Origin: Candidatus Latescibacterota bacterium
GTDB taxonomy: Bacteria > Latescibacterota > UBA2968 > UBA8231
Length of the DNA stretch: 64,000 bases
Reading direction: 5' to 3'
Assembly: GCA_965242865.1 (NCBI GenBank)
Contig: CBDETK010000013.1
Span: 1,440,001-1,504,000 of the forward strand
Shown: one piece after another, positions 37,214 through 43,919 of the stretch
How positions within the stretch are numbered: position 1 is the stretch's first letter
Layout: the number at the start of each line of letters is the position of its first letter
Position numbers and translations under genes: made by a program
The notes under the pieces: generated by a model
What the model saw: only the letters and a program-made list of their open reading frames with translations
Database searches by the model: none
What the model was told of the DNA's origin: nothing

Positions 37214-39001
37214 GTGAGCATCGTCGTCCTCGACTTTGGCGGGCAGTACGCCCACCTAATCGCCAACCGCCTGCGCCGCCTGCGCGTCCATGCCGAAATT
37301 CGCTCGCCAGCGACCGCGGTCGCCGATTTACAAGACGCCGACGGGCTGATTCTGTCGGGCGGCCCGGCCAGCGTCTATGATCCGCAAGCCCCAGCGTACA
37401 ACCCCGAGATTTTGGCGATGGGCAAGCCAATGCTGGGCTTGTGCTACGGCCACCAACTGCTCTGCCACCGCTTGGGGGGCCAAGTCGAGCGGGGGGCGAC
37501 GCACGAGTTTGGCGCGGCCCATCTACACGTCCAAAGAGCAGAGGGCGTGCTGGCCGGACTAGACGCCCGCGAGCGGGTGTGGATGAGCCATCGCGACCAC
37601 GTCGCAGCCCTGCCGCCCGGGTTTGCCGTCTTGGGCGCGACCGAAAACTGCCCGGTGGCGGCGATGGGCGACCCCGAGCGCAAGATCTACGGCTTGCAGT
37701 TCCATCCCGAAGTGACGCACACCGTCCGGGGCATGGACATCCTCGACAATTTTGCCGCGCTCTGCGGGGCCGAGCGGTGCTGGACGATGGAGCGCTACAC
37801 CGAGCAGGCGATAGAGCGCATCCGAGCGCAGGCTAAGGGGCGCAACGTCTTTCTGTTCGTCAGCGGCGGGGTCGATTCGTCGGTGGCGTTCCTCTTGCTC
37901 AACCGCGCCTTGGGCGCAGAGCGGGTGCGGGGCTTGCACATTGACAACGGCTTTATGCGCGAGGGAGAGAGCGCACGGGTCGAGCGGCTGATGAAGGAGG
38001 CCGGCCTGCACAACCTAACGGTCGTTGATGCCAGCGCGGATTTCCTCGCGGCTACGGCGGAGATTGCCGACCCCGAGGAAAAGCGGCGGCGGATCGGCGC
38101 GGAGTTCATCCGCGCCCGCGAGCGGGCACTGGCCGCGCTGGCACTGAACCCGGACGAGTGGCTGTTGGGCCAAGGGACGCTCTACACGGATACCATTGAA
38201 TCCGGCGGCACGGAAAACGCCGCGGTCATCAAGACTCATCACAATCGCGTCGGCGTCCTCGAGCAGCTTTTGGACGAGGGCAAGGTCATTGAGCCGCTCG
38301 ATCAGCTCTACAAGGACGAAGTGCGCGCCTTGGGCGAAACGCTCGGCTTGCCACCCCACTTGGTCTGGCGGCATCCGTTCCCGGGGCCGGGGCTGGCGGT
38401 GCGGGTTTTGTGCAGCGAGACGCCGAGCACACGGGCACTTGAGACCGCCCCCGAGGCGCAGAAGGTGGCCGCGACATTCGGCCTAGCGCTCGACGTGCTG
38501 CCGCTGCGCAGCGTCGGGGTGCAGGGCGATGAGCGGACCTACGCCCATCCAGCGGTGGTTACCGGCCCGAGCGAGTGGAAAACGCTGGCGGCCCTGTCCA
38601 CCGAGCTGACCAATCGCTTTCCAGCGATCAATCGGGTGATTTACCTGTTGGGACCGACGCCGCGGCCGCTGCAAACGCTCAAACCCGGGTATTTAACCCG
38701 CGACCGGCTCGACCTCCTGCGCCGGGCCGATGCCATCGCCATGGCGGCCTTAGAGCGGCACGGGCTGATGCGGGAAGTGACCCAAATGCCGACGGTGCTG
38801 CTCCCGCTGTCGTCGGATGGGGTCCAAGAGAGCGTAGTGCTGCGGCCGATTGCGACGTCCGACTTTATGACCGCACGCTTTTGCCGGTTGCCGCCGCCGT
38901 TTTTGGACGATGTGTGCGAGCGGCTGTTGGCACTCGCGGGCATTGAGGCCGTTTTCTACGACATTACCCACAAGCCGCCGGGCACAGTGGAGTGGGAGTG
39001 A
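37214..39001 (+). CDS. guaA: GMP synthase (glutamine-hydrolysing)
   Basis: VLDFGGQY, GLCYGHQL, QFHPEV, SGGVDSSV, IKTHHN, HPFPGPGL, KPPGTVEWE. Confidence 0.97.
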   Translation: MSIVVLDFGGQYAHLIANRLRRLRVHAEIRSPATAVADLQDADGLILSGGPASVYDPQAPAYNPEILAMGKPMLGLCYGHQLLCHRLGGQVERGATHEFGAAHLHVQRAEGVLAGLDARERVWMSHRDHVAALPPGFAVLGATENCPVAAMGDPERKIYGLQFHPEVTHTVRGMDILDNFAALCGAERCWTMERYTEQAIERIRAQAKGRNVFLFVSGGVDSSVAFLLLNRALGAERVRGLHIDNGFMREGESARVERLMKEAGLHNLTVVDASADFLAATAEIADPEEKRRRIGAEFIRARERALAALALNPDEWLLGQGTLYTDTIESGGTENAAVIKTHHNRVGVLEQLLDEGKVIEPLDQLYKDEVRALGETLGLPPHLVWRHPFPGPGLAVRVLCSETPSTRALETAPEAQKVAATFGLALDVLPLRSVGVQGDERTYAHPAVVTGPSEWKTLAALSTELTNRFPAINRVIYLLGPTPRPLQTLKPGYLTRDRLDLLRRADAIAMAALERHGLMREVTQMPTVLLPLSSDGVQESVVLRPIATSDFMTARFCRLPPPFLDDVCERLLALAGIEAVFYDITHKPPGTVEWE

Positions 39002-39005
39002 GAGT

Positions 39006-39344
39006 ATGTTCGACACCCGCATCCGCGACGAAGCCGTGAGCAAGCGCCGCGAGCGGCTGCGAGCAGAGCAAGCCGAGTTGCTCGCCTGTGTCCGCAGCAC
39101 CCTGTTGGCCCTGCGCCAGCCGCTCGGTATTGAGGCCGCGTACATTGTCGGCTCGCTGCGGTCGCCCAATTCTTGGCGGGAGTCGTCCGACCTTGACGTG
39201 GCCGTGGGCGGCTGCTCGCCCGTTGTGCTCGAAGTAATGAAAGCACTAGAGGACGCGACCGGCAGAGTGGTAGATGTAATTGACCTCGACCGGCATCCCG
39301 CCCCCCAATCCTTTGTCCAGTCGGGCGTCAAGGTGTATGGATAA
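39006..39344 (+). CDS. Minimal nucleotidyltransferase (MNT/MntA-like) antitoxin
   Basis: YIVGSL...SSDLDVAV...VDVIDL. Confidence 0.85.
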   Translation: MFDTRIRDEAVSKRRERLRAEQAELLACVRSTLLALRQPLGIEAAYIVGSLRSPNSWRESSDLDVAVGGCSPVVLEVMKALEDATGRVVDVIDLDRHPAPQSFVQSGVKVYG

Positions 39345-39801
39345 AGGAGCCTTCTCCATCCTCGAAGCGGAATTGCGGTCGCGTTCCCGAGATATCGACC
39401 GCATCGGCGGGCGCATTGAGGAACGCCTGAGCGCGTTTGCCCATAGTGCCGAAGGGATAGACAGCATGGGATACCAACTCCACAACCTCTACGGCGCGTT
39501 TGAGCAGTTGTTTGAGGAGGTGGCGCGCTTCTTTGAAAACCAAATCGACGAATCAAGGTATCACGCGGACATGATTAGGCGAATGCAGCTAGAGCTCCAA
39601 GGCATCCGCCCGGCGCTCCTGTCCGCCGAAACGGCTGCCGACCTCGATGAGTTGCGACGCTTTCGCCATCTATTTCGCCACGCGTACGCCGCAGAATTGG
39701 ACCCCGACAAAGTGGCGGATTTGGCGGCCCAAGCCGTGCGTGCCCGGCGCGCCTTTGCGCGAGACTTCGAGCGGTTCCTAGCGCGCTTGCGGCCCGAGTA
39801 G
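39337..39801 (+). CDS. HEPN (HepT-like) ribonuclease toxin
   Basis: LHNLY...E; RX4HXY motif RHLFRHAY; overlaps the MNT gene. Confidence 0.85.
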   Translation: MDKGAFSILEAELRSRSRDIDRIGGRIEERLSAFAHSAEGIDSMGYQLHNLYGAFEQLFEEVARFFENQIDESRYHADMIRRMQLELQGIRPALLSAETAADLDELRRFRHLFRHAYAAELDPDKVADLAAQAVRARRAFARDFERFLARLRPE

Positions 39802-39802
39802 C

Positions 39803-39920
39803 TATAGCAACCCTCCATCCTTCAAGACTGGATTCCCGCTGTTGCGGGAATGACATCTCGTCGGCAAAAAGACGGCGTCGATGAACATTCCATGCTTTCA
39901 AGTCACTTAGGACCGCTATA
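39803..39920. mobile_element. ~118-bp MITE (TATAGC termini) with dRS3-like core, copy 1
   Basis: TATAGCAACCCT...AGGACCGCTATA; similar to 57891-58007 and 59045-59161. Confidence 0.75.
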
Positions 39921-41165
39921 GCAAACGAGGGTGTACTGCTTCTTGCCGCGGCGCACGATCCAGTATTGGCCGTGGAGGCCCTCTTGGCGGCGTACGCGCC
40001 GCGCCAAGTCCGTGCAGCGCTCGCCGTTGATGTAGATGGAGCCGTTTTGCACATCTTGGCGGGCTTGGCGTTTGGAGGAAGAGACGCCGGCCGCGACGAG
40101 CAGATCAATCAGTCCTAGTTCCCCCGGACCCATCGCGTGCGTTGGCACGTCGCCAAAGCCTTCGAGGATTTCGGCCTCGGATAAATCCTGAAACGCTCCG
40201 TAAAAGAGCGCGTGCGAGATGCGCTCGGCCCGGTGCGCGGCGTCGGCCCCATGCACCAAGGTCGTCACTTGGGCCGCGAGGGTGCGCTGGGCTTCGCGCC
40301 GCTCGGGCCGGTCGCGGACGGTTTCGGCGAGCTGGAGGATCGCGTCCTGCGCCAAGAAGGTGTACGCTTTCAGGTACTCGACGACCTTTTGGTCCTCGGC
40401 GTTGATCCAGAACTGGTAAAACTGATAGGCCGAAGTCTTGGCCGCGTCGAGCCAGATGGTGCCCGCTTCGGTCTTGCCGAATTTGCTGCCGTCTGCTTTG
40501 GTCACCAGCGGGCAAGTCAGGCCAAAGGCCCGGCGGCCGGCGGCGCGGCGGATTAGATCGGTGCCAGCGGTGATATTGCCCCACTGATCAGAGCCGCCGG
40601 TCTGCAACTCGCAGCCGTATTCTTTGTTGAGGACCAAGAAGTCGTAGGCCTGGAGCACCATGTAGCTGAACTCGGTGTAGGAAATGCCCGCTTCCAAGCG
40701 CGAGGCGACCGAGTCCTTGGCCAGCATGGAGGAGATGGGAAAGTGCTTGCCGACGTCGCGCATAAAATCAATGGCCGCGAGTTGGCTGAGCCAGTCGTAG
40801 TTATTGACCGCGACGGCCGGGTTGGGGCCATCGAACTCCAAGAAGCGCGCGAGTTGAGTTTTGACCTGCTCGGTCCATTCGGCCACCACGTCGCTGGCAT
40901 TGAGCTGGCGCTCCTCGGCCTTGCCGCTTGGGTCGCCGATTAGGCCGGTGCCGCCGCCGGCGAGGGCAATGACCTTGTGACCGGCGAGCTGGAAGCGGCG
41001 CAGGAGCAAGATCGGCACGAGGTTGCCGACCGTCAGGCTGTCGGCGGTGGGGTCGAAGCCATTGTAGAGCGCGATTGGACCGGCCGCGAGGCGTGCGGCG
41101 AGGCTGTCGAGGTCCGTGGCTTGGTAGATCAAGCCGCGAAATTGAAGATCGGGGATGATGTTCAT
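39903..41165 (-). CDS. tyrS: Tyrosine--tRNA ligase
   Basis: LYNGFDPTADSL, GGSDQWGNI, KFGKT, C-terminal S4 domain with RRGKK. Confidence 0.96.
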   Translation of the reverse strand: MNIIPDLQFRGLIYQATDLDSLAARLAAGPIALYNGFDPTADSLTVGNLVPILLLRRFQLAGHKVIALAGGGTGLIGDPSGKAEERQLNASDVVAEWTEQVKTQLARFLEFDGPNPAVAVNNYDWLSQLAAIDFMRDVGKHFPISSMLAKDSVASRLEAGISYTEFSYMVLQAYDFLVLNKEYGCELQTGGSDQWGNITAGTDLIRRAAGRRAFGLTCPLVTKADGSKFGKTEAGTIWLDAAKTSAYQFYQFWINAEDQKVVEYLKAYTFLAQDAILQLAETVRDRPERREAQRTLAAQVTTLVHGADAAHRAERISHALFYGAFQDLSEAEILEGFGDVPTHAMGPGELGLIDLLVAAGVSSSKRQARQDVQNGSIYINGERCTDLARRVRRQEGLHGQYWIVRRGKKQYTLVCYSGPK

Positions 41166-41184
41166 TAGGGGTCCTTATGGGCAT

Positions 41185-41211
41185 AAAAAAAGCCCCTGTA
41201 ATCAGGGGCTT
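41185..41211 (-). terminator. Intrinsic terminator (attenuator) in the tyrS leader
   Basis: Minus strand AAGCCCCTG-ATTA-CAGGGGCTT followed by a T run, about 20 nt upstream of the tyrS ATG. Confidence 0.8.
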
Positions 41212-41243
41212 GTAACCGCGGTTGAGACGATAAAACGAGCGCA

Positions 41244-41306
41244 CTACCCCTCTGTGTGAAGCGAATAATAGGGGTAGCGGCGATTGGGGCGTAAGGTCTG
41301 CATCAT
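41244..41306 (-). CDS. Putative tyrS leader peptide MMQTLRPNRRYPYYSLHTEG
   Basis: GGAG RBS 5 nt before ATG; three Tyr codons (TAC CCC TAT TAT); TAG stop. Confidence 0.7.
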   Translation of the reverse strand: MMQTLRPNRRYPYYSLHTEG

Positions 41307-41322
41307 TCATTCTCCGCGCAAA

Positions 41323-41351
41323 AATATAACCGCGCCCTCTATCTCCGTCAA
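41323..41351 (-). promoter_or_regulatory. Sigma70 promoter of the tyrS leader
   Basis: TTGACG-N17-TATATT on the minus strand. Confidence 0.7.
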
Positions 41352-42604
41352 TCGCCCAGATAGCCTTGGGCGGCCCAGACTTTGCGGGCCAGCTTTTTCG
41401 CCTCGGCCGAAGGTTCGATTGCGCCCAAAAGGCTGCTCGGCGGCTGCCCTTGCTTTTTGCGCTCCGGGTCGGGCGACCAGTCGTCTTGGGCGTATTTTTG
41501 GCGCACGGACTCGCAACGGAAATCGGGCACCTCCATCGGTGCCGAGTCGTTTAGCACCGAACGCCACGCTTGGATCCCGGCGATGCTCATGTCGAGGCCG
41601 CGGTACACGTCGAGATAGGGCGGCTCGCCGGTGCGGATGGCCTCGGCAAAGTGGTAGCTGGTGAAAAAGTCGCCGCCGCCGTGGCCGGTGCGTGTGGCTT
41701 CGGCGTGATGCACGGGGAAGTCGGGCTTGTATACCATTTCGACCGGATCGCGCTGGCGCTTTTCCCACGGCTCGTACCACACGCGCAGCCGCTGTTTGTC
41801 GCCATGGCGGCAGTTTTCCATCACCCCCTTGTTGCCGTGGATGCGGACGTAGTTGCCGTGGCCGCGCAGCGCGCCGTGCAGCGACTTCACCACCGCGTCG
41901 TTGTCCATCCGGCAGATGATCACCGCGGCCGTGTCGCTGCGGTTCACGTGCAGCGTTTGGGTGGGGTCGGCGAAATCATAGGGGACGACAAAGCCGTTGA
42001 CTTTTACGGGCCGGGTATCGGTGATGTACAGGACCGGGGCGATGGAATGGGTGCAGTAGTACGTGGCGGGAATCCAGTTGCGCCAGTGATCGCGCCCGCA
42101 GCTGCGCGCCAGTTTCACTTCCGGCGGATCGGGATGGACGTACTCGCCCTCGCCGTATTTGAACTCGCCGACGCGCCCCTGTTGGTAGAGCCGCTTCATC
42201 TCCTGATTGAAGACCATGTAGGGGTAGTTCTCGGCGAACATGTACATTTTGCCGCTTTGCTCGACTGCTCGCGCCAGTGCCGCGCCTTCGCCCAAGGTGT
42301 GGCAGGCCGCGGTTTCGCTCATTACGTGTTTGCCGGCGTTGAGTGCTTGGATAGCGAACGGGGCGTGCTGGTGGAAGTAGTTGGCGAGCACGACCGCGTC
42401 CAGATCGCAGCCGAGAAATTCGTCGTACTCCACGAAGGTCGGCACGTTGAGGGCCTTGCCCTCTGCCCCGAGGCGCTCTTCCCACATGTCGCAAATGGCG
42501 ACGAGTTCCATGCCGGTCGCAGCGGCCGCCCGCATAAAGGAGCGACCGCGACCAACGCCGACTACGCCGACTCGGATGGGACGTGGTTTGCCGCGTTTTT
42601 TCAT
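41348..42604 (-). CDS. Gfo/Idh/MocA family oxidoreductase
   Basis: VGVVGVGRG, AGKHVMSE, GEGEYVH, GHGGGD. Confidence 0.88.
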   Translation of the reverse strand: MKKRGKPRPIRVGVVGVGRGRSFMRAAAATGMELVAICDMWEERLGAEGKALNVPTFVEYDEFLGCDLDAVVLANYFHQHAPFAIQALNAGKHVMSETAACHTLGEGAALARAVEQSGKMYMFAENYPYMVFNQEMKRLYQQGRVGEFKYGEGEYVHPDPPEVKLARSCGRDHWRNWIPATYYCTHSIAPVLYITDTRPVKVNGFVVPYDFADPTQTLHVNRSDTAAVIICRMDNDAVVKSLHGALRGHGNYVRIHGNKGVMENCRHGDKQRLRVWYEPWEKRQRDPVEMVYKPDFPVHHAEATRTGHGGGDFFTSYHFAEAIRTGEPPYLDVYRGLDMSIAGIQAWRSVLNDSAPMEVPDFRCESVRQKYAQDDWSPDPERKKQGQPPSSLLGAIEPSAEAKKLARKVWAAQGYLGD

Positions 42605-42646: not shown

Positions 42647-43315
42647 TTAGGTGTTTTCAACGGTTTCTATAGCGATCTCACCAGTCCGAGAGTCGAGCGT
42701 AATTTTTACCAAGTCCTGATATTCCGGATCACGGATCGCGGACCGCTTGAAAACGGGTACGTTGGAACCATTCTCCCGGCGTGCGGAAGGAACGACTAAA
42801 CCGTCCAATTCCAACCGAACTGCTTCCGCACCAATCCGATTACAGAACGTGTAATCACTATCGTGTACCAGTTCCGGCCACTCGCTCAGTTTGTCTCGGA
42901 GGTCTTTTTCTTTGCCTTCAAACAAACAGGTAAAACACCGATAATAGGCACTGCGTTGACCTTGGGGGCGACCTCCAAAACCCTTTTTGAACCCATGCGC
43001 GACCTCTGCCTCGGCAGTCGCGGGGTCAAGGGCACTATAAAAGACGGGATAGGATCCATCTGAGTACCTCGTCGTGTGCCCTAGGTGGCGTTTCGGACGA
43101 AATGGCGCATCCCAGCGTTCTTCAGTAGCTACGAGTAGCTCGCTCAGTTCCTGTTCACTAAGATCATCCAATTCTAGTTCGGCAAGGAGTTCGTCGTACT
43201 CAAGCAAGCTGGCCAATCGGTATATCCGCCAGCGGCGGCGGACGGTAGGAATCTCGTTGAGCAGGTCGTCAACCGATTGGCGGGACTTGGGCGCGTCATC
43301 GTCCTGCGGCCGCAT
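42647..43315 (-). CDS. RES domain protein (toxin-like)
   Basis: YRL, RYSDGSYPVFYSALD..TAEAEV, GLVVPSAR...G.N. Confidence 0.82.
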   Translation of the reverse strand: MRPQDDDAPKSRQSVDDLLNEIPTVRRRWRIYRLASLLEYDELLAELELDDLSEQELSELLVATEERWDAPFRPKRHLGHTTRYSDGSYPVFYSALDPATAEAEVAHGFKKGFGGRPQGQRSAYYRCFTCLFEGKEKDLRDKLSEWPELVHDSDYTFCNRIGAEAVRLELDGLVVPSARRENGSNVPVFKRSAIRDPEYQDLVKITLDSRTGEIAIETVENT

Positions 43316-43919
43316 CCACGTACTCCTTCACCAAAAGAAGGTCTTCCATGGAGCCGCCCAACAGCAACTCCAACGGCTCTCGTTCATCTAGCAAGGTGTG
43401 CGGTTCGCGCAGCCATTCGTTTTCGACATCCAAATCGCGAAAGAGCGAGGACAGCGTCGCCCTGATATGAAAAAGGTGGGCAATTCTATCGCGAACATCC
43501 CGGCCGTGTAGGTTGACAGTTCCTGCCAAAATAGTTCGCACGAAACCTTTGGCCGCCGCATCGAATCCCAGCAGGAAGACTGCGTCATCTTCGCTCAAAC
43601 GCCAACTCTCAAGCAATTTTAAGACAAACTGAACTGGCCCGCTGATCCGTTTCGGCGCAAAGGCAAGCGATCGCCAATTCCCAACGTCGGGACCGATATC
43701 TGGAGAGAGAACTGCGGTAAGTCCGGACTGCAACTGATAAGGGGACGAACCGCTGGCGGAGGATGGAAAGGTAAGTTTCGGATTCCGCCTATAGCGGCGG
43801 AGCGCATGTGAATCGGCACCGACATCGGACGGCCCATCATAGCCGGAGTTCGACTTCAAGAGGGAGTCATTAGCACCTCCTCCAAGAGCCGGTCCTAATA
43901 GTTCTGTTGCAGTCGTCAT
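43296..43919 (-). CDS. Xre/MbcA/ParS-type antitoxin with N-terminal extension
   Basis: RIAHLFHI...L.SLF...ENEWLREPH..L....PLELLL.G..EDL..V..YVD. Confidence 0.72.
   Translation of the reverse strand: MTTATELLGPALGGGANDSLLKSNSGYDGPSDVGADSHALRRYRRNPKLTFPSSASGSSPYQLQSGLTAVLSPDIGPDVGNWRSLAFAPKRISGPVQFVLKLLESWRLSEDDAVFLLGFDAAAKGFVRTILAGTVNLHGRDVRDRIAHLFHIRATLSSLFRDLDVENEWLREPHTLLDEREPLELLLGGSMEDLLLVKEYVDAAAGR

Follow-up and report, generated by a model that had tools for sequence, protein, structure and literature searches.

A tyrosine-codon leader upstream of tyrS in one family of the Latescibacterota, a probable ribosome-mediated transcription attenuator

The DNA analysed here (the window, 64,000 nucleotides (nt) of contig CBDETK010000013.1 from a Candidatus Latescibacterota bacterium) carries tyrS, the gene for a tyrosyl-tRNA synthetase (TyrRS), on its minus strand. 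The product matches Pfam tRNA-synt_1b (E 7.5e-80) and has a SYY C-terminal domain and an S4 domain, and no second TyrRS-type gene was found in the genome. Between tyrS and the next gene upstream lies a leader made of a promoter, a short open reading frame (ORF) with clustered tyrosine codons and an intrinsic terminator. The leader is probably a transcription attenuator of the ribosome-mediated (leader-peptide) kind, through which the supply of charged tRNA-Tyr would govern how much tyrS is transcribed. To our knowledge, nothing is known of gene regulation in this uncultured lineage.

Parts of the tyrS leader

Promoter, GGAG ribosome-binding site, a 20-codon ORF with three Tyr codons, hairpin 1:2, terminator with its U7 tract and tyrS follow one another in the order, and at the positions, given by the original prediction. 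They are listed here from the promoter to the gene, with conservation as seen across the family loci or in a 23-sequence alignment, both described below.

41346 to 41351, minus strand: -35 hexamer TTGACG; TTGAC is conserved across the family loci
41323 to 41328, minus strand: -10 hexamer TATATT, separated from the -35 hexamer by a 17-nt spacer; invariant in the 23-sequence alignment
41312 to 41315, minus strand: Shine-Dalgarno sequence (SD) of the leader ORF, GGAG, 5 nt 5' of the first ATG; conserved in the 23-sequence alignment
41301 to 41306, minus strand: tandem leader start ATG ATG
41244 to 41306, minus strand: leader ORF MMQTLRPNRRYPYYSLHTEG, 20 codons plus TAG (stop codon at 41246-41244)
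41265 to 41276, minus strand: regulatory codons TAC CCC TAT TAT (Tyr-Pro-Tyr-Tyr), with TAC at 41276-41274 and TAT TAT at 41270-41265
41270 to 41281, minus strand: segment 1, GCCGCUACCCCU, the 5' strand of hairpin 1:2 in the minimum-free-energy fold, over the first Tyr codon
41239 to 41251, minus strand: segment 2, AGGGGUAGUGCGC, which spans the stop codon and can have segment 1 or segment 3 as its partner
41216 to 41236, minus strand: spacer, whose UUUUAUCGUCUC pairs with the leader SD/start region (41301-41318)
41203 to 41211, minus strand: segment 3, the terminator 5' arm, AAGCCCCUG
41190 to 41198, minus strand: segment 4, the terminator 3' arm, CAGGGGCUU
41185 to 41191, minus strand: U7 tract of the intrinsic terminator; its T columns are invariant in the 23-sequence alignment
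41172 to 41176, minus strand: tyrS ribosome-binding site AAGGA
39903 to 41165, minus strand: tyrS, tyrosyl-tRNA synthetase, 420 amino acids, with its ATG at 41165

The promoter matches 10 of 12 consensus positions and is one of only two promoter-like sites in 3.5 kb (0.7 ± 0.9 in shuffles); its -35 hexamer overlaps the TGA stop codon (41350-41348) of the upstream gene, which encodes a GFO/IDH/MocA oxidoreductase. The terminator (AAGCCCCUG-AUUA-CAGGGGCUU, 41211-41190) has a 9-bp stem and ends 20 nt upstream of tyrS. Within the genus the U-tract and the tyrS start are only 19-30 nt apart, too little for a second promoter before the gene.

Conservation of the leader and its tyrosine codons

A TyrRS protein search of 41 related genomes gave 30 loci, 23 from the same genus and seven from a sister family. 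In 23/23 same-genus loci the promoter and the terminator are the same, and between them lies a leader ORF of 18-21 codons that includes 2-6 Tyr codons (the peptide at locus L002, for example, is MQTLRADRYYYYYYTSRPKGG); the regulatory site holds 2-6 Tyr codons in all 29 loci of the genus. Upstream of the element stands a divergent gene in most loci and an oxidoreductase gene in a few; since the upstream gene differs in this way, the element belongs to tyrS and travels with it. In the 23-sequence alignment the Tyr columns vary as TAT/TAC, a synonymous change, and indels at these columns are 3 or 6 nt long, a pattern that bears apparent signs of coding constraint.

The class comprises 132 genomes in four families; tyrS-upstream regions were taken from 68 genomes of the window's own family (18 genera). 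Leader ORFs were called by a rule that takes an ATG start (else GTG), at least 10 codons and the closest stop codon at 15-55 nt before a terminator, itself within 170 nt of tyrS. It replaced two other rules: choosing the stop closest to the terminator had selected overlapping out-of-frame ORFs in 7-8 loci, and choosing the first ATG had done so in five. A leader ORF with in-frame Tyr codons followed by a terminator stands upstream of tyrS in 61/68 family genomes and 15/18 genera, so that the Tyr codons, whose conservation before tyrS orthologues the original prediction had proposed to check, are indeed kept across most of the family. The 61 ORFs span 13-28 codons, start with ATG (GTG in one) and are always accompanied by a terminator. 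Their peptides diverge widely (MTRTIAYRYYYYASGG, MKNCYRYYHLEISGG, MKMPVITPAFAYYRYRYYRDTYRGALL, MTLKSYYYRLEKQYGG and MESHTPTTVSDRRYRRAEAIRTGGTER), and what they have in common are the Tyr codons with Arg codons beside them and a G-rich end.

Three further family loci fall outside the rule for reasons of their own: L051 lies on a truncated contig, L060 (genus g13) has the Tyr codons and the terminator with no ATG, GTG or TTG start in frame, and L138 has the ORF with no terminator by the rule used. Outside the family the element is absent from all 22 loci of the phylum that were inspected, namely the seven of the sister family (7/7, with tyrS directly after a trpF-like gene), three of a third family, four of a fourth and eight of another class; in L153 and L158, among these outside loci, there are two stray ORFs that contain or end in YY, but they start over 300 nt upstream and no terminator follows them.

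Among the leader residues Tyr shows the strongest enrichment, with a genus-averaged share of 15.9% against 2.94% in the genome's long ORFs. With one locus taken per genus, an ATG ORF with clustered Tyr codons occurs in 12/15 genera, compared with 51/3000 dinucleotide shuffles. The leaders use 115 TAT to 67 TAC codons, where the genome has 9817 TAT to 19930 TAC, a comparison in which the same-genus loci are not independent of each other. A scan of the whole genome (5,997,474 bases) for short ORFs that have three or more Tyr codons in a stretch of five, and a hairpin plus T-run no more than 110 nt downstream, matched the tyrS leader alone.

This distribution bears on the alternative that the promoter, the ORF and the terminator are a small gene in their own right, for a functional peptide or a small RNA, with tyrS transcribed by leakage. 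Such a gene would have a parallel in Sinorhizobium, where rnTrpL and peTrpL, an attenuator-derived RNA and a leader peptide, are reported to act in trans. The element, however, is found only beside tyrS, whatever the upstream gene; the peptide is unconserved between genera save for Tyr, Arg and the Gly-rich end; and tyrS, an essential gene, would be left without room for a promoter after the terminator. We consider this alternative very improbable.

Equally improbable in our judgement is antitermination by a factor acting in trans on the leader RNA, whether uncharged tRNA-Tyr (the T-box principle) or an autoregulatory TyrRS, with the UAY triplets serving for recognition and not as translated codons. 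There are precedents for both, since Firmicutes tyrS is placed under T-box control in the available part of PMC1262725 and E. coli ThrRS is named as a regulator of its own expression in that of PMC2965389. Against them, the T-box model (RF00230) gave no match in L001 and 13 other loci of the phylum, nor at E up to 10 on the window leader, whereas the positive control, the Paenibacillus tyrS locus L064, scored 94.2 bits; the leader RNA before tyrS is moreover only about 130 nt long. The UAY triplets are always in frame within an ORF that has a start and a stop, they change in number by whole codons and their substitutions are synonymous. More generally, no Rfam family reached its threshold on the leader: the best leader-type family was Phe_leader (RF01859), with 20.5 bits at 41183-41307 against a gathering score of 55, and the other Rfam leader families gave no match at E up to 10 on the leader and none at gathering score on 15 loci.

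Some tyrS loci carry features of their own, noted here in passing. The 5' part of L060 holds three tandem copies of GAAGTAACC. In L025, from the sister family, the heptamer GTCTCCC is repeated in two intergenic arrays before tyrS, one of 3 copies and the other of about 8, and in L112, from one g16 genome, a tRNA gene lies at 374-447, upstream of the tyrS leader. In one same-genus genome (G107:C1:1164558-1165925) the tyrS match is split in two, with about 100 nt between the part for residues 1-234 and that for residues 225-416; an insertion, a frameshift or a faulty assembly may account for the split, and the Tyr leader upstream is intact.

Leader folding and the proposed switch

In its minimum-free-energy fold the leader forms hairpin 1:2 (41281-41270 / 41251-41239) and the terminator, and its SD/start region pairs at long range with the spacer. 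The 160-nt leader folds only moderately better than its shuffles (z -2.11, with 5/200 shuffles as good), and significance must therefore come from conservation and comparison. RNAalifold, applied to the 23-sequence alignment, recovered the terminator and the long-range SD/start-spacer helix. On this structure the share of pairing cells is 95.0%, which falls to 41-56% once the 3' partners are shifted along, and six pairs are changed on both sides, against 1.5 ± 1.0 in shuffles (0/500); within the genus, compensatory changes affect 4 of the 8 pairs of the SD/start-spacer helix. These pairing and covariation figures lean towards the structure because it was derived from the same alignment. The terminator keeps all 9 pairs in 23/23 sequences, with variation on one side at most.

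The original prediction had also proposed that AGGGGU in segment 2 can pair with GCCCCU in segment 3 as an antiterminator. This complementarity is present, and we refine it to a composite helix in which the core is joined by UGCG/CGCG: CCGCG of the spacer can pair either with the leader SD/start end or with UGCG 3' of the stop codon, and in the latter case it lengthens the antiterminator. The fold energies in the window copy are -19.2 kcal/mol for 1:2, -12.3 for the composite 2:3 and -15.5 for 3:4.

Comparison between genera carries this further. A C-run in the terminator 5' arm is complementary to a G-run at or just before the leader stop codon in all 15 genera, and the two sides change together from genus to genus. 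The complementary stretches read (C)AGGGGU / AGCCCCUG in the window's genus, CGGGGG / CCCCCG in g9, AGGGGCUC / GAGCCCCU in one g16 locus, CCGCACCGGGGG / CCCCCGGUGACGG in one group of g22 loci and CCGUCCUCG / CGAGGAUGG in the other; in L126, from this second g22 group, they are CCGUGCUC / GAGUACGG, which by eye reads as a G-U to C-G exchange relative to L128. Because the genera are too divergent for an alignment of all 60 distinct leaders, we used alignment-free duplex tests, in which the cognate 2:3 duplexes average -15.16 kcal/mol and the non-cognate ones -14.06 (683/20000 permutations as good). The spacing of the parts also fits a ribosome footprint: the distance from the first Tyr codon to the beginning of segment 2 is 12-41 nt, and the stop codon falls within segment 2 or up to about 29 nt after its start, with the exception of L127, where it lies 4 nt before segment 2.

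With Tyr codons, terminator and 2:3 complementarity all conserved, the attenuator interpretation of the original prediction is supported, and we propose the following mechanism. Transcription would start about 7 nt after TATATT, and a ribosome would load to translate the 20 leader codons. With ample Tyr-tRNA it would reach the TAG inside segment 2 and cover that segment, 3:4 with its U7 would form and transcription would end 20 nt before tyrS. When Tyr-tRNA is scarce, the ribosome would stall on UAC/UAU UAU and hold segment 1, with its leading edge short of segment 2; AGGGGU (with UGCG) could then pair with GCCCCU (with CGCG) before the 3' arm is made, allowing read-through into tyrS. If the leader is not translated, 1:2 would form, with the SD-spacer helix as its clamp, and transcription would terminate. 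What the sequences show are the parts with their order and conservation, the Tyr enrichment and the complementarities; ribosome stalling, a kinetic competition and regulation by tyrosine are what we infer.

The folding calculations speak partly for and partly against this mechanism. Equilibrium folding of the full leader gives the terminator in every ribosome state (mean probability 0.94 when untranslated, 0.89-0.91 when stalled and 0.99 with the ribosome at the stop codon), so the switch would have to be kinetic. We also folded nascent transcripts, cut before the terminator 3' arm, and took the pairing probability of the 5' arm as the readout. With a 28-nt ribosome footprint masked, mean 5'-arm pairing is 0.57 with no ribosome, 0.81 with a ribosome stalled at the Tyr codons and 0.46 with one at the stop codon, and most same-genus copies reach 0.98-1.00 when stalled; the window copy, however, gives 0.52 / 0.52 / 0.51, that is, no difference, and only 8/15 genera differ by at least 0.3. 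With all RNA 5' of the ribosome's leading edge masked, the genus means are 0.83 for the Tyr stall against 0.39 at the stop codon, the stall-stop difference is at least 0.3 in 51/61 loci and 11/15 genera, and the window copy gives 0.85 stalled against 0.51 at the stop. Nascent folding thus predicts the expected switch, in the window copy only under the stronger masking assumption.

Further points weigh against the mechanism, beginning with the pairing itself. The antiterminator core of the window copy is only 6 bp long, and the test of cognate against non-cognate duplexes is weak (about 0.034). Of the helix covariation that the original prediction had looked to, the part between genera stood, 2:3 complementarity co-varying across the 15 genera; the part within the genus did not, segments 2 and 3 being invariant there and hence without covariation. 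In distribution, four family loci in three genera (L055, L058, L130 and L140) show no sign of the element. In codon content, Arg is also raised in the leaders (15.2% against 7.68% in long ORFs), all nine loci of genus g22 have only one or two Tyr codons, and several of them (L056 and L129, for example) have a single Tyr among four Arg codons.

Codon specificity, sibling leaders and known attenuators

These codon counts also favour the idea that the short ORF and terminator act as a general translation sensor or a constitutive brake, with the Tyr codons incidental or part of a slow Arg/Tyr context. Besides the Arg share and the sparse Tyr codons of g22, Arg codons directly flank Tyr codons (Y-R-Y, RRYRR) in 14/15 genera, with CGC CGC (41282-41277) directly before TAC in the window copy, and CGA makes up 28.7% of the leader Arg codons against 10.9% genome-wide. 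On the other side, Tyr is enriched 5.4-fold and Arg only 2-fold, most genera have runs of 3-6 Tyr codons and the controlled gene is always tyrS. The codon moreover matches the gene elsewhere in the genome, where thrS is preceded by Thr runs and trpE(G) by Trp codons. We therefore regard a general sensor or brake as improbable.

A somewhat less remote idea, which we still think unlikely, keeps the Tyr signal: the Arg-Tyr-Arg arrangement, rich in the rare CGA, could form a context-dependent stall site, making the leader a hybrid of a starvation-sensing leader and an arrest peptide, read in some genera by a first ribosome that follows right behind RNA polymerase on leaderless RNA. Concerning leaderless RNA, we note that in L129, L056, L132, L133 and L137 (g22) and in L053 (g17) the leader ORF begins 7 nt after the -10 hexamer, too close for an SD to fit in between; judging by this spacing, such leader peptides may be translated from leaderless RNA.

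The leaders before thrS and trpE(G) emerged from a promoter-anchored scan of the genome (TTGAC-N16-19-TAnnnT followed by a terminator with at least T6 and by a gene), which gave 17 loci, three of them with a short ORF that has a single-amino-acid run: the tyrS leader, MNFSPHIRRWWRAWHF... before the fused TrpE(G) and ...PTASPTPTTTW... before threonyl-tRNA synthetase. The tyrS leader, read here as an attenuator, thus stands beside Thr and Trp leaders in the same genome. A leader of this kind stands before thrS and tyrS alone among the 15 aminoacyl-tRNA synthetase loci inspected, which come from five Pfam families (those of the Glu/Gln, Arg, Cys and Ala enzymes lie outside this set). Two de novo scans were discarded as too noisy: one for an amino-acid run with a perfect-stem terminator gave 85 candidates, and one for any 5' terminator gave 1215 matches, with a filter that lost tyrS itself.

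The Thr-codon leader, MISAMHTVAFAAYPSGFPSGPTASPTPTTTWICAG, ends with a terminator 18 nt before thrS (G000:C13:2815774-2816000, L151:75-300), and its ATG lies only 7 nt after the -10 box. By a lenient pattern it is kept before thrS in 28/28 same-genus loci, where as many as 12-13 Thr codons follow one another. The Trp-codon leader, MNFSPHIRRWWRAWHFPSRERGASIR, precedes with its terminator the fused anthranilate synthase gene trpE(G) (G000:C13:240853-241045, L152). About 2.4 kb downstream of it, at the end of the trp gene cluster, lies a second tRNA-synt_1b gene, presumably trpS, which overlaps the end of the preceding gene and, given this overlap, may belong to the same transcription unit as trpE(G).

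In its proposed organization, the tyrS leader shares the four-segment logic of E. coli trpL, where the regulatory codons lie in or next to segment 1, the stop codon lies near segment 2, 2:3 forms the antiterminator, 3:4 with a U-tract forms the terminator, and an untranslated leader leads to termination. It differs in that trpL controls a biosynthetic operon, in having its stop codon inside segment 2 and, in the window's genus, in the extra covarying SD/start-spacer helix. The E. coli pheST attenuator, whose leader peptide is pheM, likewise stands before an aminoacyl-tRNA synthetase gene and has cognate codons, alternative hairpins and an intrinsic terminator; it senses Phe where the tyrS leader would sense Tyr, and the two have no sequence relation. 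Outside the Proteobacteria, short ORFs with cognate codons precede synthetase genes of Streptomyces, as described in the available parts of PMC1262725 (trpS, leuS) and PMC8079986 (alaS, thrS, trpS, leuS). Several of those are leaderless, as some tyrS family leaders may be; several lack a clear terminator according to the authors, whereas the tyrS leaders of the family always have a strong one. The Firmicutes tyrS T-box (RF00230) serves the same gene and the same signal, tRNA-Tyr charging, also through terminator control; unlike the leader described here, it binds the tRNA directly, has an RNA of more than 200 nt and involves no translation.

In the literature searched we found no Tyr-codon leader for tyrS or tyrosine genes, in line with the original prediction's remark that none had been described; the broadest survey of synthetase attenuators, Lopatovskaya et al. 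2010, lies outside that search. The available part of PMC1262725 predicts classical attenuators for Streptomyces trpS and leuS and gamma-proteobacterial pheST, and its conclusion places tyrosine under T-boxes. That of PMC2965389 describes His leaders before hisS paralogues in bacilli and does not contain the terms tyrS or tyrosyl; that of PMC8079986 lists Streptomyces lividans leader peptides before alaS, thrS, trpS and leuS and none for tyrS, its Table 4 included; and that of PMC4833913 holds no tyrosine case. PMC12310071 and PMC9413887 mention tyrS in unrelated contexts. Synthetase leader attenuators in this literature thus cover pheST, trpS, leuS, thrS, alaS and hisS paralogues, and not Tyr.

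The tyrS leader is a real element and is best filed as a probable ribosome-mediated attenuator, the Tyr/tyrS case of a known class, in one family of an uncultured phylum. As such it would add tyrosine to the amino acids read by ribosome stalling and leave the concept of attenuation unchanged. Its 61 divergent copies amount to a natural mutational series in the number of regulatory codons (1 to 6) and in their distance to the antiterminator, and they could seed a covariance model for annotation.

RNA data touch the leader in a few places. Seven RNA runs from two studies had small word shares (0.04-0.09), and four of them were examined. Metatranscriptome contigs from relatives (90-95% identity) include a 61-nt piece over 41198-41251 and a 249-nt piece over 41274-41353; being assembled only, without ends, strand or levels, they speak neither for nor against transcription or termination.

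The tyrS locus is flanked by two toxin-antitoxin-like pairs. One, at 42647-43919 of the window on the minus strand, consists of a RES domain protein and a Xre/MbcA/ParS antitoxin; the other, at 38910-39801 on the plus strand, of a Pol-beta-type nucleotidyltransferase, matched weakly at 24.2 bits against a cut-off of 26.9, and a HepT-like protein. The gene guaA occupies 37214-39001 of the window.

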